Virus record (IMG/VR): IMGVR_UViG_3300020576_007358
From: a virus
Length of the DNA stretch: 64,000 nucleotides
Reading direction: 5' to 3' (one strand)
The notes below the pieces were generated by a model that was not told where the DNA came from, did not search any database, and saw only the letters and a program-made list of their open reading frames with translations. This document shows, in pieces, positions 57,075-63,798 of this stretch. The stretch's first letter is position 1, and each line of letters opens with the position of its first letter. The position numbers and the translations under genes were made by a program.

Positions 57075-57620
57075 GTGACGTCAGAGCAAAAAATAATCAT
57101 GGTAGTCGGACCTGATATGACGGGAAAAACTCAAATTGCGCAAGAGTTGTCGCGTCGAACAGGGCTTCCGTACTTCAAGGCAACGTCAGAGCACACTTCA
57201 TTCTTGTCTTCAAGAGTTTCAAAGAACGATCAGTTTTTGAACCAGCTACGATTTGCAGATCCACGAGTCCTTGACTTGCTGCGGCAAACGGGACACAGCG
57301 TCATATTTGATCGCGCGTATCCTTGCGAGTATTCGTACTCCAAGGTGTTGGGCCGTGAAACTGACATGAAGATGCTCTACCACGTTGACGAAGCATGGGC
57401 TAACATTGGCGCCCGCGTCGTTCTGTGTCATCGATCATCGTACGTTGGCATTGAAGATGACTTGGATCCAACTATCAACGCTGAGGTTCTTCAAAAGCTT
57501 CACGATGAGTACTTCACTTTTGCATCATGGACGAAGACGAAGCTTCTGAAGCTTAACGTTGATGATGAAGATCTAGAGCGTGAGATGCGAGAGGTTCTTG
57601 CATTCATCAAGGGATTATAA
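57075..57620 (+). CDS. P-loop kinase (dNMP/nucleoside kinase-like).
   Basis: VVGPDMTGKTQIA Walker A. Confidence 0.45.
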   Translation: MTSEQKIIMVVGPDMTGKTQIAQELSRRTGLPYFKATSEHTSFLSSRVSKNDQFLNQLRFADPRVLDLLRQTGHSVIFDRAYPCEYSYSKVLGRETDMKMLYHVDEAWANIGARVVLCHRSSYVGIEDDLDPTINAEVLQKLHDEYFTFASWTKTKLLKLNVDDEDLEREMREVLAFIKGL

Positions 57621-58303
57621 TGGCAAAGATCATAAACTACGATTCTGAATTTTTTGACGACGGTAGGAAGTACTTCGCTCGCGGCCTTCCAGCATGGAAG
57701 GACTTTGTCTTGAAGGATTTGAAAGCCACGTCGATCGCCGATTTTGGCTGCGGCCAGGGTGATTGGCTCGAACCCCTTGAAGGCATCATCCCGATCTGGT
57801 GCTGCGATGGTTATGCTGACATGACAGCATTGAGAGTCAACCAATCAAACTTCAGAAAGATAGACATCGGAACTGTGAAGCCTAGCACGCTTGATGTTGG
57901 CCCACGTGACGTTGTCATGTCGCTTGAAGCGATGGAGCACGTTTGCAACGTTCATGAAGGCAACTTTTTGGACTGCATGCTGCTGCCCAATCCTCGCATC
58001 GTTGTCTTTGGTGTTGCGTCTGGTCGTGGCACTTACGATCCCAACCAAGGAAAGATCAATCGTTTGGGCGAATTCGTCCCGGGTGGACCTGATTGGCTGC
58101 CGCAGTTCGGACGTCACCACGTGAACTGCCAACCAGTCTCTGTCGTTGAGGGAAAGATGCTGAAGAGAGGATATGTTGTAGATCCCGTTCTGACATCAAA
58201 GTTCTCCAACTTGAGAGTTCCAGGGCGCAACAAGAAGGGTCGCTTTGCGTTCGCTTCTTTCTACAGGAAGAACACTCGAGTTTACGTAAAGGCTTCCCAA
58301 TGA
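57620..58303 (+). CDS. Class I SAM-dependent methyltransferase.
   Basis: DFGCGQGDW motif I. Confidence 0.45.
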   Translation: MAKIINYDSEFFDDGRKYFARGLPAWKDFVLKDLKATSIADFGCGQGDWLEPLEGIIPIWCCDGYADMTALRVNQSNFRKIDIGTVKPSTLDVGPRDVVMSLEAMEHVCNVHEGNFLDCMLLPNPRIVVFGVASGRGTYDPNQGKINRLGEFVPGGPDWLPQFGRHHVNCQPVSVVEGKMLKRGYVVDPVLTSKFSNLRVPGRNKKGRFAFASFYRKNTRVYVKASQ

Positions 58304-58602
58304 GCATTGTCATAGCTGTTCTAACGTACATTATAGCTGTCGTACCCGTCTTCGTGATTGGTTTCATCATCGGAGACATACGACGAGACATTGCTGCGAT
58401 CAGGGTGATGAGCTCTGAAAGGATGACAACGGCTACTGATCTGATGAACATTCATGGGCTGATATCTTCTGGCAACGTTCAAGCTGCCGATGAATACGTC
58501 AACAGCACATTTTACTCAATTGCTGCTCATGATCTAACAACGCCACGTCGCATACCAAACTTGATCACAGCTTCACCGGATTGCAATGACGACGAACACT
58601 AA
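58300..58602 (+). CDS. Hypothetical membrane protein (N-terminal TM helix).
   Basis: ORF track; hydrophobic N-terminus. Confidence 0.3.
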   Translation: MSIVIAVLTYIIAVVPVFVIGFIIGDIRRDIAAIRVMSSERMTTATDLMNIHGLISSGNVQAADEYVNSTFYSIAAHDLTTPRRIPNLITASPDCNDDEH

Positions 58603-59104
58603 ACCATGCCCAGGGTGTTCGATCGAAATTCCAACGTGCGTGAATAGATGCTGGGATTGCGGCATAGCCAACGCAATAGAAGCTGGAGGCAAGTTTTACT
58701 GCCCAAACGAGCTGCCTGTTGGTTGCATCAAAGCTGACGGGAACATGTTTGAACACGAGCATGGGGATCATCCAGATTACAAGTTCCCTGTTAACGTTGA
58801 GTACATTGGACCTCTGAAGATAGGTCACGTGTCAGACTATGCTACCATGATTTCGTCTGACGTTGAAGAGCAAAATCTAACGCTCGAAACTTTTGACGAG
58901 GCAGAGGTTAGAGCCACGTTGGGTGAGGTACATGCGCTAGTTTACACTGACGGCATCGTTGCATTGACGCTCTACGAGTACACGTACGCTCTGTGGCTCC
59001 TTGAAGATGGCGGCAAACCAATCTGCGATCAACGTTACTGGAAGAAACCTGAGTGGAGGCTTTCAGAGGCTTCGATTGAAAAGATAAAGGTGTTGAAAAG
59101 ATGA
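58586..59104 (+). CDS. Hypothetical protein with an N-terminal Cys cluster.
   Basis: ORF track. Confidence 0.35.
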   Translation: MTTNTKPCPGCSIEIPTCVNRCWDCGIANAIEAGGKFYCPNELPVGCIKADGNMFEHEHGDHPDYKFPVNVEYIGPLKIGHVSDYATMISSDVEEQNLTLETFDEAEVRATLGEVHALVYTDGIVALTLYEYTYALWLLEDGGKPICDQRYWKKPEWRLSEASIEKIKVLKR

Positions 59105-59457
59105 GCAGAAGCAAAATTTGGATCGAGCTGCATTATGCTATGCTCGATGGCCGCGAAGAGTGCGTTCCCGAGTCGATAGGATGGACAAATGGGCACATAT
59201 TCTTCAAGACCGGTCGTGCTTCAACAAGGATTAAAGCTCCGGCGTCATGGACTTTTGATGAACTAGATGGTTCGTACGATCGTGAAGCATGCGTTCAACA
59301 TACTGTTGATCAAATCAGAGAAGAGATTGCTTCTGATTATGGTGAGAATCTGTTGAAGTCAATGGTTGGTCGGATGTTCGATCAAGCCAAGGCTCACTGC
59401 GACGCAGAACACCAAGAGTACAGGAAGCAGAGCAATCCGGGCAGAAAAGGACATTGA
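59101..59457 (+). CDS. Hypothetical protein.
   Basis: ORF track. Confidence 0.3.
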   Translation: MSRSKIWIELHYAMLDGREECVPESIGWTNGHIFFKTGRASTRIKAPASWTFDELDGSYDREACVQHTVDQIREEIASDYGENLLKSMVGRMFDQAKAHCDAEHQEYRKQSNPGRKGH

Positions 59458-62555: not shown

Positions 62556-62589
62556 GCTGGCTCGAGATGCAGGAGGGCACCCTTTCATG

Positions 62590-62784
62590 GGCTCGCCAGA
62601 CTTTTCTGATGCACCAGACGTGCTGAGCAAGTTGCTCGATGAGTTCAGCGAGCTGAGAGCTCACACCGTCGACATGAATGATCTTCGTGAACGTCTCCGT
62701 GATGCTGTTAGAGCTCGGTGCTCTTACGAGGTGACGACGCTTTCAGCAATGCGGAAGATGAACTTGCTCTGCAACGTCGACTAA
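62590..62784 (+). pseudogene. Diverged duplicate of the glycosyltransferase 3' end (GSPDFSD...RCSYEVTTLSAMRKMNLL vs CNPDFSD...RCSYEETTLSSMKRMDLL).
   Basis: Amino-acid similarity with nucleotide divergence. Within ORF 62503..62784. Confidence 0.4.
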
Positions 62785-62829
62785 CACGCTGTACATTAGC
62801 CCTGTAGGTGGGTATAGTCTTACCTAGAC

Positions 62830-63798
62830 ATGAAAGTCCTCATAACTGGCTACGCAGGGTTCATTGGTTCAAATTTGACAGCAGCATGCGTAGCTGCTGG
62901 TTGGACAGTTACTGGTGCTGATGATTTTTCTAATGGGCACGCAGAATTTTTGAGCGATTCAACTCTTCGAGAAATTCGTGAATTTAAGTGTGATTTTTCT
63001 GATGAAGCAGTTCTTCAGAAGATCAGGGACAAAGAGTTTGACGTTGTCATCCATCTTGCTGCTGTTCCAAGAGTTTCGTACTCTGTGGAGCATCCGTTTG
63101 AAACGAACGATGCAAACGTCACGAAGACGCTGAAGTTGCTGGAAGCATGCAGAGGAAACATCACACGGTTCGTCTTTGCTTCATCTTCTTCAGTGTACGG
63201 CGGCGCTCTTAAGCTACCCACGCATGAGAGCGAAGAGAAGAATCCCAAGTCGCCGTACGCGCTTCAGAAATCTATCATCGAAGATTACTTGACGTTGTAC
63301 AAGACGTTCTACGGTCTAGATTCTGTCTCCTTGAGGTTCTTCAACGTCTTTGGACCCAACGCGCTGGGTGGTTCTCCGTACGCAACTGCGCTCGCCGCGT
63401 GGTTGACGGCCATCAAGAAGGGTGAACCGCTTCGCTTCGATGGTGACGGCTCTCAATCAAGAGACTTGTGTTACGTTGACAACGTTGTTGATGCATGCAT
63501 GAAGGCCGCAACAGCGCAGCTTCCATCTGCTGAAGCGCATCGATTCAACGTAGCATGTGGAACTGAAGTATCCAACAACGACATCATTCTTTACCTTCTG
63601 AAGCGTTACGGCGGGTTCAAGCTCAACGTCGCGCCTACACGGCCAGGTGATGTGAAGCGAACGCTAGCAAACATCAGCGGTGCATCAGTTTACCTTGCGT
63701 ACAGCGTAAAAGTTCCTGTTTGGGAAGGTATTGCTCGCACATGCGATTGGTACGACAACAATTGGGACTGGGCAAAGAACCTAAAGCTTAACGTCTGA
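62830..63798 (+). CDS. NAD-dependent epimerase/dehydratase (UDP-sugar 4-epimerase-like).
   Basis: VLITGYAGFIGSNL and YALQKSIIE (YxxxK). Confidence 0.6.
   Translation: MKVLITGYAGFIGSNLTAACVAAGWTVTGADDFSNGHAEFLSDSTLREIREFKCDFSDEAVLQKIRDKEFDVVIHLAAVPRVSYSVEHPFETNDANVTKTLKLLEACRGNITRFVFASSSSVYGGALKLPTHESEEKNPKSPYALQKSIIEDYLTLYKTFYGLDSVSLRFFNVFGPNALGGSPYATALAAWLTAIKKGEPLRFDGDGSQSRDLCYVDNVVDACMKAATAQLPSAEAHRFNVACGTEVSNNDIILYLLKRYGGFKLNVAPTRPGDVKRTLANISGASVYLAYSVKVPVWEGIARTCDWYDNNWDWAKNLKLNV

Follow-up and report, generated by a model that had tools for sequence, protein, structure and literature searches.

A predicted 5-hydroxymethylcytosine glycosylation module with its own sugar-donor genes in an uncultivated giant phage

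The DNA considered here is a stretch of 64,000 nucleotides from IMG/VR record IMGVR_UViG_3300020576_007358, read on one strand from 5' to 3' and called the window below. Between positions 57075 and 63798 it carries genes for a nucleotide kinase, a methyltransferase, a glycosyltransferase (GT) and a nucleotide-sugar epimerase. This module probably glycosylates 5-hydroxymethylcytosine (5-hmC) in the phage's own DNA, with the 5-hmC made before replication and with a sugar other than glucose. Such a reading is based on a gp42-type hydroxymethylase gene with the gp42 active-site signature, on separate ThyX and thymidylate kinase (TMPK) genes, on gene linkage that persists across phage backbones and on a recurring donor pathway. 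It also relies on an architecture shared with the characterised clusters of RB69, DLP3 and RL38J1, and on the existence of GT-epimerase pairs known to act on 5-hmC.

The original prediction had named five open reading frames (ORFs), all of which were found on the + strand (Table 1), with assignments that agreed with ours. It had placed them among replication genes, and the module is indeed surrounded by genes for an intein-split DnaE, UvsX, single-stranded DNA-binding protein (SSB), ribonucleotide reductase (RNR), ThyX, TMPK and dUTPase. Its interpretation, base hypermodification of the glycosylated hydroxymethylcytosine or hydroxymethyluracil type, is supported and can be sharpened to the former: the gp42-type gene at 63949 favours hydroxymethylcytosine, and an Asp at the position of ThyA N177 disfavours hydroxymethyluracil. 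Virion proteins, offered as alternative acceptors, were graded less likely than DNA. The module also reaches past 57075-63798, as it includes the hydroxymethylase gene from 63949 onwards, a UDP-xylose synthase (UXS) gene at 48037 and possibly a MazG-like gene at 34178.

Hydroxymethylase, glycosyltransferase and their linkage

The hydroxymethylase gene is interrupted by the end of the window. The last 301 bases of the window (63700-64000) are 100% identical to positions 5926-6226 of contig L001, and the gene could therefore be read from L001, whose GT is also identical to the window copy. Over 100% of its 219 residues, the protein read in this way is 50-55% identical to the gp42 dCMP hydroxymethylases of T6, Merlin and many T4-like phages (tblastn, E 5e-75 to 1e-69), against 23% for E. 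coli ThyA. It carries the Pfam domain Thymidylat_synt. In an alignment with E. coli ThyA, T6 gp42 and the RB69 gp48-type enzyme of PhAPEC2, its active-site columns were those of T6 gp42: the catalytic Cys (C146) is present, L143 is replaced by Asp, D169 is retained and N177 is replaced by Asp. The RB69-type control shows Asn at position 169. According to the criteria of a 2026 study (PMC13326640), Asp at the ThyA-N177 position is the cytosine-specificity switch, and the 5-hydroxy-dCMP synthases of RB69, DLP3 and RL38J1 are recognised by Asn at 169. The enzyme starting at 63949 is thus predicted to convert dCMP into 5-hydroxymethyl-dCMP. A 5-hydroxy-dCMP synthase like RB69 gp48 was considered for the window phage and rejected, position 169 being Asp.

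Homologues of this protein are called 'thymidylate synthase' by PHROGs and in several GenBank records, and genes for dCMP deaminase and thymidine kinase adjoin it. It could accordingly be taken for an ordinary thymidylate synthase, or for a dCMP methylase, in a phage with canonical or 5-methylated DNA and unrelated sugar genes. This explanation is highly improbable in view of the identity to experimentally known T-even gp42 proteins, the Asp residues placed at the ThyA-N177 and ThyA-L143 positions exactly as in gp42, the scores of NCBIfam ThyA models (53 bits, with cut-offs of 327) and the presence of ThyX. The adjoining genes also count against it, as T4 has cd, tk and td beside gene 42. ThyX and TMPK provide a separate route to dTMP and dTDP, which leaves the ThyA homologue dispensable for thymidylate synthesis and free for cytosine chemistry. 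By inference, the genome holds two pairs of synthase and kinase, one for thymine and the other for hydroxymethylcytosine.

The GT consists of two Rossmann-like domains with an inter-domain cleft, which is the GT-B fold. This fold was resolved by structure prediction only, since no match to the protein was found in Pfam (E <= 0.01), PHROGs, NCBIfam or a profile search of PDB sequences, and the Pfam assignment was empty for all 120 homologues listed. At the sequence level the family profile does not merge with GT4 (148 proteins at E <= 1e-3 among 1.84 billion representatives), and a faint Glycos_transf_1 match appeared in one distant relative of 600 aa. As the fold is that of GT-B and Pfam membership of GT4 failed, the enzyme is termed GT4-like and is not considered a GT4 member. 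Its invariant residues include D349-x8-E358 (YDQDTYGGTAARE), R263 and K304, which were placed by eye at the GT4 E-x7-E and diphosphate-binding R/K sites; D349-x8-E358 differs from E-x7-E in spacing and in its first residue. Structural similarity was observed to the T4 alpha-glucosyltransferase (alpha-GT) and to the HY126 GT. Because its nearest structural neighbours are all retaining enzymes, the GT is probably retaining as well. Identity with the RB69 gp47-like arabinosyltransferase family was rejected, as profile comparison revealed no similarity.

The family comprises about 400 members at 90% clustering. No relative was found in isolated phages (tblastn, 50,697 phage records), and a scan of 185,579 species genomes in GTDB yielded one 1-kb fragment of a metagenome-assembled genome as its only cellular occurrence. 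From its gene neighbours across phage backbones and its structural similarity to alpha-GT and the HY126 GT, the GT is proposed to be a DNA 5-hmC glycosyltransferase.

Gene order was compared in 35 IMG/VR loci carrying GT relatives at 34-98% identity. It was near-constant: DnaE, kinase, (methyltransferase), GT, epimerase, thymidylate-synthase homologue, HslV-like protein, thymidine kinase and dCMP deaminase. The kinase lies upstream of the GT in 32 loci, the epimerase directly downstream of it in 31, and the thymidylate-synthase homologue was present in 33, the other two loci being truncated. All 28 distinct thymidylate-synthase homologues encoded next to GT relatives in IMG/VR loci have the gp42 signature in common, and they fall into two sequence classes. 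The second class, found in about a third of the relatives (L012, L020, L021, L023, L028, L029, L032, L034, L037, L039 and L042) at 1-6 kb downstream of the GT, has 324-360 aa and is 26-34% identical to the window protein. It keeps the Cys, Asp169 and the N177 to Asp change, has Lys or Leu in place of A142 and Ser in place of C168, and may differ in product specificity.

More distant GT relatives (24-37% identity), located on other phage backbones, provide stronger evidence of linkage than synteny within the lineage. Two of these backbones have PolA. On L131, the order is a gene like uracil-DNA glycosylase (UDG), GT, kinase-like gene, PolA and thymidylate-synthase homologue; on L041, a kinase-like gene and a thymidylate-synthase homologue lie 1.6-3 kb upstream on the other strand, with an FkbM-type methyltransferase gene, unrelated to that of the window, downstream. 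Two others have PolB. L125 carries dUTPase_2 and, further on, UDP-glucose dehydrogenase, a short-chain dehydrogenase/reductase (SDR), GT, dCMP deaminase, PolB and thymidylate-synthase homologue, whereas L127 carries UDP-glucose dehydrogenase and, further on, a dCTP-deaminase-like gene, GT, a TMPK-like gene and thymidylate-synthase homologue. On the 7.8 kb contig L126, the GT is preceded by dUTPase_2, a dehydrogenase, an SDR and a kinase gene orthologous to that of the window (E 5e-31), in this order. On the 3.3 kb contig L130, the thymidylate-synthase homologue ends 5 nt before the GT, and on another short contig, L040, the two are also side by side. Orthologues of the window kinase are retained near the GT in L131 and L041 as in L126, UDP-glucose dehydrogenase belongs to the GT neighbourhood in L125, L126 and L127, and an SDR abuts or is near the GT in L125, L126 and L128, dehydrogenase and SDR being directly beside the GT in L125.

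In the L130 pair of thymidylate-synthase homologue and GT (469-2473), the former displays the D169N/G173V signature of 5-hydroxycytosine synthases, so that the common denominator is a C5-oxygenated cytosine, and this suggests that one GT family serves both 5-hmC and 5-hydroxycytosine pathways. The family is constantly accompanied by an enzyme that oxygenates cytosine nucleotides at C5 and by a nucleotide kinase, and the linkage of GT, kinase and thymidylate-synthase homologue exceeds what shared ancestry would give. In L126 (5331-6053) and L131 (1115-1783), a UDG-superfamily gene lies immediately upstream of the GT, and L126 also has a small CTP_transf_like nucleotidyltransferase; these genes are possibly base-flipping or nucleotide-sugar accessories.

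Donor sugar, accessory enzymes and proposed pathway

The ORF described as UXS-like by the original prediction matches human UXS1 over residues 3-329 with 283 bits, while the next enzyme class reaches 94 bits, and contains the catalytic TSE and Y-x3-K motifs (ASTSEVYG and YDEGKR). By this match and these motifs it is a UDP-glucuronate (UDP-GlcA) decarboxylase; no NCBIfam equivalog passed its cut-off for the protein. The 4-epimerase is an extended SDR with motifs ASSSSVYG and YALQK and without the dehydratase Asp-Glu pair. Among characterised 4-epimerases it is closest to WbgU, followed by WbpP (2.9e-45) and GalE (about 1e-23), while its best NCBIfam matches remained below cut-off (TviC, 163 vs 760 bits; GalE, 152 vs 262 bits). 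Its closest characterised relatives act on N-acetylhexosamine (HexNAc) and on the corresponding uronic acid (HexNAcA), and the donor sugar may therefore also be GalNAc, galactose or galacturonic acid. The gatekeeper residue, which we take to be the Thr of GDVKRTLANIS, corresponds to S306 in WbpP, C307 in human GALE and Y299 in E. coli GalE; it fits a bulky HexNAc but is not decisive.

The epimerase is proposed to supply a C4-epimer donor to the GT, and the adjacency of the two genes indicates something other than an ordinary host UDP-sugar as the donor. A UDP-GlcA-derived donor is indicated by the UXS gene 11 kb upstream of the GT, by its presence (51-60% identical) on at least 18 of the 35 GT-carrying contigs and by the UDP-glucose dehydrogenase and SDR genes near distant GTs, with the caveat that UXS is widespread in viral contigs generally (579 matches). 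The simplest scheme with a single donor would lead from UDP-GlcA to UDP-xylose and on to UDP-L-arabinose. A pentose derived from UDP-GlcA, or a C4 epimer, is the probable donor sugar; that it is specifically a pentose is quite conceivable, although we would not presume it.

The kinase, whose AAA_28 match is just above the Pfam cut-off, was further characterised with a profile of 18 orthologues, which matches deoxyguanosine kinase (E 2e-4) and YorR (E 4e-3). It is 28% identical over 90 aa to the RB69 gp45-like 'nucleotide kinase' of PhAPEC2 (pairwise E 1e-5). YorR is also the top structural match of DLP3 gp78 (PMC13326640). The protein is proposed to act as a 5-hm-dCMP (nucleotide) kinase. The methyltransferase has the seven-stranded, Rossmann-like fold and the glycine-rich motif I of its class. 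Close orthologues lie immediately behind the kinase; a clear one (63-71% identical) was found in only four of the 35 loci, with weaker matches (27-30%) in four more. The methyltransferase is treated as an accessory gene of unassigned substrate. One proposal is that it adds a methyl group to a hydroxyl of the attached sugar, but its action on the modification appears rather unlikely.

The MazG-like segment is 38% identical to the C-terminus of the T6 gp56 dCTPase over 56 aa (pairwise E 2e-8). This match emerged only from the pairwise comparison, since a tblastn search of the window with T6 gp56 gave nothing significant, and the segment is a candidate gp56-like dCTPase, to be taken as a lead only. 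dUTPase_2 genes likewise accompany the distant GT relatives in L125 and L126. In the ORF that holds the segment, an N-terminal Zn-finger/TnsA-like endonuclease region is in frame with the MazG/dUTPase_2-like domain; either the pyrophosphatase is produced from an internal Met (at about 34178) or both domains are fused.

The proposed pathway would start with the conversion of dCMP to 5-hydroxymethyl-dCMP by the gp42-type enzyme. The kinase would phosphorylate this product towards the triphosphate pool, from which the phage DnaE replicase would incorporate it, and the MazG-like pyrophosphatase may deplete dCTP. After replication, the GT would use a UDP-sugar to glycosylate the 5-hydroxymethyl group in DNA. 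The donor would be a product of the phage SDRs and not host UDP-glucose: UXS would make UDP-xylose from UDP-GlcA, and the 4-epimerase would invert C4, giving UDP-L-arabinose from UDP-xylose or else a galacto-configured hexose, HexNAc or uronic acid. As a speculative last step, the sugar may receive an O-methyl group from the methyltransferase, which only a subset of the relatives encodes. The resulting DNA would be expected to resist restriction enzymes and probably also CRISPR nucleases and glucosyl-hmC-specific nucleases.

Several observations weigh against glycosylation of 5-hmC in DNA. Acceptor and sugar are deduced from gene context only, the hydroxymethylase gene lies almost wholly outside the window, and the dCTPase assignment is based on those 56 residues. 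The window contains no UDP-glucose dehydrogenase gene, and giant-phage relatives have none within 10 kb of the GT. Synteny among giant phages also conserves unrelated genes, such as those of the HslV-like protein and superoxide dismutase (SOD); co-occurrence is hence partly plain collinearity, which in one lineage is weak evidence alone. None of the characterised DNA glycosyltransferases is detectably similar to the GT in sequence, and the predicted isoelectric point of the GT (5.6) is not basic as might be expected for a DNA-binding enzyme. In structure it most resembles enzymes acting on small molecules and lipids: among solved structures the best matches are GT4 enzymes for small molecules, lipids or polysaccharides, and among viral proteins they are Arthrobacter phage glycosyltransferases without an assigned acceptor.

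These structural matches, the acidic character of the GT and the collinearity, together with the frequency of epimerases in cyanophages, would fit a role as auxiliary metabolic genes, as in cyanophages and actinobacteriophages. The GT and the two SDRs would then serve to glycosylate virion proteins or to alter a glycan on the host surface, and their nucleotide-gene neighbours would be an accident of gene order. Such a role is improbable, given that the thymidylate-synthase homologue and the nucleotide kinase stay neighbours of the GT on four unrelated backbones where other synteny is lost. The virtual absence of the GT family from cellular genomes argues against a borrowed polysaccharide role, and neither membrane or secretion features nor adjacent structural genes were found.

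The methyltransferase leads to another alternative. Its best sequence relatives are Hen1 RNA 2'-O-methyltransferases, its sLEaMEH motif aligning with vIEvIEH of Hen1, and it may belong instead to the phage RNA-repair set, the window encoding a polynucleotide kinase-phosphatase (PNKP), an RNA ligase and RlaP. This also counts against the methyltransferase as part of the module. Under the alternative, 5-hmC DNA would still be made, and the GT would act before polymerisation on the nucleotide, or on tRNA or other RNA together with the Hen1-like methyltransferase and the RNA-repair genes. Although the translational coupling of the methyltransferase to the P-loop kinase was counted in its favour, we regard this as very improbable.

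Post-replicative glycosylation of 5-hmC in phage DNA is thus preferred. Its elements can be combined into a more elaborate proposal, possible but doubtful as a whole: in a widespread lineage of uncultivated giant phages, cytosine would give way to 5-hmC with an attached pentose (xylose or L-arabinopyranose, obtained from UDP-GlcA via UXS and the 4-epimerase), O-methylated in some members by a dedicated methyltransferase. Such a base is not yet described. Its sugar would be installed by a hitherto unrecognised, phage-only family of GT-B DNA glycosyltransferases, used with 5-hydroxymethyl- and 5-hydroxycytosine on at least four backbones.

Table 1. Window features related to the module and mobile insertions next to it (SAM, S-adenosylmethionine; dNK, deoxynucleoside kinase)
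Feature	Position	Strand	Basis and remarks
ThyX	31712..32374	+	Pfam Thy1 5.2e-33
TMPK	32371..32958	+	Pfam Thymidylate_kin 4.3e-8
MazG/dimeric-dUTPase-like segment (all-alpha NTP pyrophosphatase)	34178..34525	+	Pfam dUTPase_2 2.3e-5; C-terminal 115 aa of ORF 33350-34525
UDP-glucuronate decarboxylase (UXS)	48037..49047	+	Pfam Epimerase 2e-44; human UXS1 E 3e-83
dNK/TMPK-like P-loop kinase, 181 aa	57075..57620	+	AAA_28 1.7e-6; phrog_761 'thymidylate kinase' 3.9e-9
Class I SAM-dependent methyltransferase, 227 aa	57620..58303	+	Start overlaps kinase stop
DUF7487/HNH-type homing endonuclease	59458..60375	-	Pfam DUF7487 5e-16; phrog_3339 'homing endonuclease' 4.4e-19; between methyltransferase block and GT
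GT-B (GT4-like) glycosyltransferase, 441 aa	60414..61739	+	Structure prediction; unannotated phage-only family
GIY-YIG homing endonuclease	61767..62555	+	Pfam GIY-YIG 4.3e-7; phrog_314 4.8e-26; between GT and epimerase
Remnant second copy of GT gene 3' end, last ~78 codons	62503..62784	+	BLASTP vs GT residues 370-441: 42% identity, E 4e-14
Extended-SDR nucleotide-sugar 4-epimerase (WbgU/WbpP/TviC-like)	62830..63798	+	Pfam Epimerase 7e-53; WbgU 2.7e-47
gp42-type dCMP hydroxymethylase (predicted), 219 aa	63949..64000	+	First 17 codons only, cut by window end; full gene L001:6175-6834

Mobile elements and genome context

Two genes within the module are mobile insertions. The GIY-YIG gene is missing at the corresponding position in L002-L004 and is considered to be outside the pathway; the other is the DUF7487/HNH-type gene. 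The GT remnant next to the former is kept in L001 and L008, and the block of endonuclease and remnant (window 61767-62784) corresponds to L001 3915-5066 and L008 3330-4481. The endonuclease and the divergent 3' copy are likely the footprint of an endonuclease-driven replacement of the GT 3' end. In L001 the endonuclease is frameshifted by a 1-bp insertion in a G run. Three small ORFs without known function are also located in 57075-63798.

Homologues of the module proteins were found on metagenomic contigs up to 370 kb, and the source is therefore an uncultivated giant phage; a megablast search with window positions 57000-64000 found no match among the 50,697 phage records. Nearly all window genes are on the + strand. 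Tail genes (gp19-like tube protein, baseplate hub and tape-measure protein) occupy the 5' part, and the remaining genes are devoted to replication, recombination, nucleotide metabolism and RNA repair. Besides the replication and nucleotide genes named in the opening section, they include a 5'-3' exonuclease and a DnaB-like helicase, and the RNR is of class I. A 406-aa ORF (17255-18475) shows a partial match to family A DNA polymerases (Pfam DNA_pol_A positions 112-357 of 381, E 6.8e-12) and, in a genome with an apparent DnaE replicase, could be a truncated or specialised PolA-like protein.

The dUTPase gene is 'fractured' into an N-extein with Hint-N (21751-22326), a free-standing TnsA-like endonuclease ORF (22332-23267) and an intein-C with C-extein (23245-23700). 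DnaE is divided likewise into PHP with intein-N (50826-51620), a 319-aa ORF without family match (51637-52596) and intein-C with the polymerase core (52547-56059). In both cases the arrangement resembles a split intein whose halves flank an endonuclease gene, and the DnaB-like helicase region (26436-27677) also shows an intein fragment. ORFs of homing-endonuclease type (HNH, GIY-YIG/NUMOD3, TnsA-like, Endo VII and DUF7487) are very dense in these 64 kb, at 1891-3552, 25274-26458, 33350-34525, 35335-36012, 43462-43989, 48966-49694, 59458-60375 and 61767-62555. Several abut or overlap nucleotide-metabolism genes; a GIY-YIG gene, for example, overlaps the 3' end of UXS.

An RNA-repair-like block (35999-42037) contains RlaP (35999), DUF7873 (37020, E 1.6e-102), a T4-type PNKP (38283), an RNA ligase (39559) and a metallophosphatase (40305). 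It is followed by the DNA methyltransferase that the original prediction had reported at 41210, and 41210-42037 does match N6_N4_Mtase (2.5e-29). Relatives also have a gene of the CCA-adding/poly(A) polymerase family downstream. Beyond the 3' end of the window, L001 encodes an HslV-like peptidase (7012-7569) and a protein with an Fe/Mn SOD C-terminal domain (9867-10583); in nearly all relatives these two are conserved in one block with the genes for thymidine kinase and dCMP deaminase.

Comparison with known systems

T-even phages glucosylate 5-hmC by means of gp42, the gp1 dNMP kinase, the gp56 dCTPase and alpha- and beta-glucosyltransferases, and the window module follows the same pathway logic. 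However, neither alpha-GT nor beta-GT resembles its GT in sequence, its kinase is dNK/TMPK-like and not gp1-like, and UDP-glucose is probably not the donor, given that the phage encodes its own UXS and 4-epimerase. For its replicase the phage has an intein-split DnaE where T-even phages have a family B polymerase, and its genome has the size of a giant-phage genome.

RB69, Acinetobacter phage DLP3 and Rhizobium phage RL38J1 possess experimentally characterised glycosyl-5-hydroxycytosine clusters (PMC13326640). Their order, a TMPK-like 'nucleotide kinase', a GT-B and a thymidylate-synthase homologue with NDP-sugar genes nearby, is the architecture of the window, and their GT-B models also match BshA, sucrose-phosphate synthase and PimA (PMC13326640). 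The window kinase has the same length as their 'nucleotide kinase', is weakly similar to the RB69 gp45-like one and shares the match to YorR. Their thymidylate-synthase homologues carry D169N and make 5-hydroxy-dCMP, whereas the window enzyme keeps Asp169 like gp42. Their sugar routes lead from ribulose-5-phosphate to UDP-arabinofuranose, or involve a UDP-galactose mutase, in contrast to UXS and 4-epimerase in the window. The window GT profile lacks similarity to the RB69 gp47-like transferase, and the optional methyltransferase is a further difference from 5-hydroxycytosine glycosylation clusters.

The pairing of GT and epimerase is shared by the metavirome 'subclass II' clusters of Pyle et al., in which glycosylation of 5-hmC in DNA strictly needs the partner epimerase and yields hexose, HexNAc or hexuronic acid products (bioRxiv 10.1101/2023.12.21.572611). 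In both cases the two genes are adjacent. The clusters of Pyle et al. were found via a C5-methyltransferase and TET, which make 5-hmC after replication, whereas that of the window is pre-replicative by inference. GT-B enzymes in the same report were mostly linked to thymidylate-synthase homologues, and UXS and pentoses are not mentioned there (10.1101/2023.12.21.572611).

Shewanella phage Thanatos bears a pentose, putatively xylose, on cytosine, which protects against restriction and Cas nucleases (PMC12838424). Its cluster of thymidylate-synthase homologue, dCTPase and GT candidate can be likened to the window module (PMC12838424), but the thymidylate-synthase homologue is of the D169N 5-hydroxycytosine type (PMC13326640), unlike that of the window. 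Thanatos, a T4-like phage, activates its sugar by a UDP-xylose pyrophosphorylase where the window phage has UXS.

In bacteria and plants, UDP-xylose and UDP-L-arabinose are formed by UDP-glucose dehydrogenase (Ugd), UXS and a UDP-xylose 4-epimerase, exemplified by Uxs1 and Uxe of Sinorhizobium meliloti. The window shares a clear UXS and a GalE-superfamily 4-epimerase with this pathway, and Ugd accompanies distant GT relatives. On the other hand, the window has no Ugd, its epimerase is nearest to WbgU, WbpP and TviC and not to a characterised UDP-xylose 4-epimerase, and the context is nucleotide metabolism, not polysaccharide synthesis.

Phages classically glycosylate their cytosines to counter restriction enzymes, CRISPR nucleases and type IV systems, and the identity of the sugar decides which host nucleases still recognise the DNA. 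The module would add a GT family that is unannotated, absent from cultured phages and virtually absent from cells, as well as a donor route for DNA modification through UDP-GlcA-derived sugars (Ugd, UXS and 4-epimerase), and its enzymes are candidate tools for selective labelling of 5-hmC. It would also be evidence for pre-replicative hydroxymethylcytosine chemistry in giant DnaE-type phages, a chemistry so far tied mainly to T4-like phages. Compared with the systems above, the principle is well known, and the GT family, the donor route and the phage lineage are predicted to be new.

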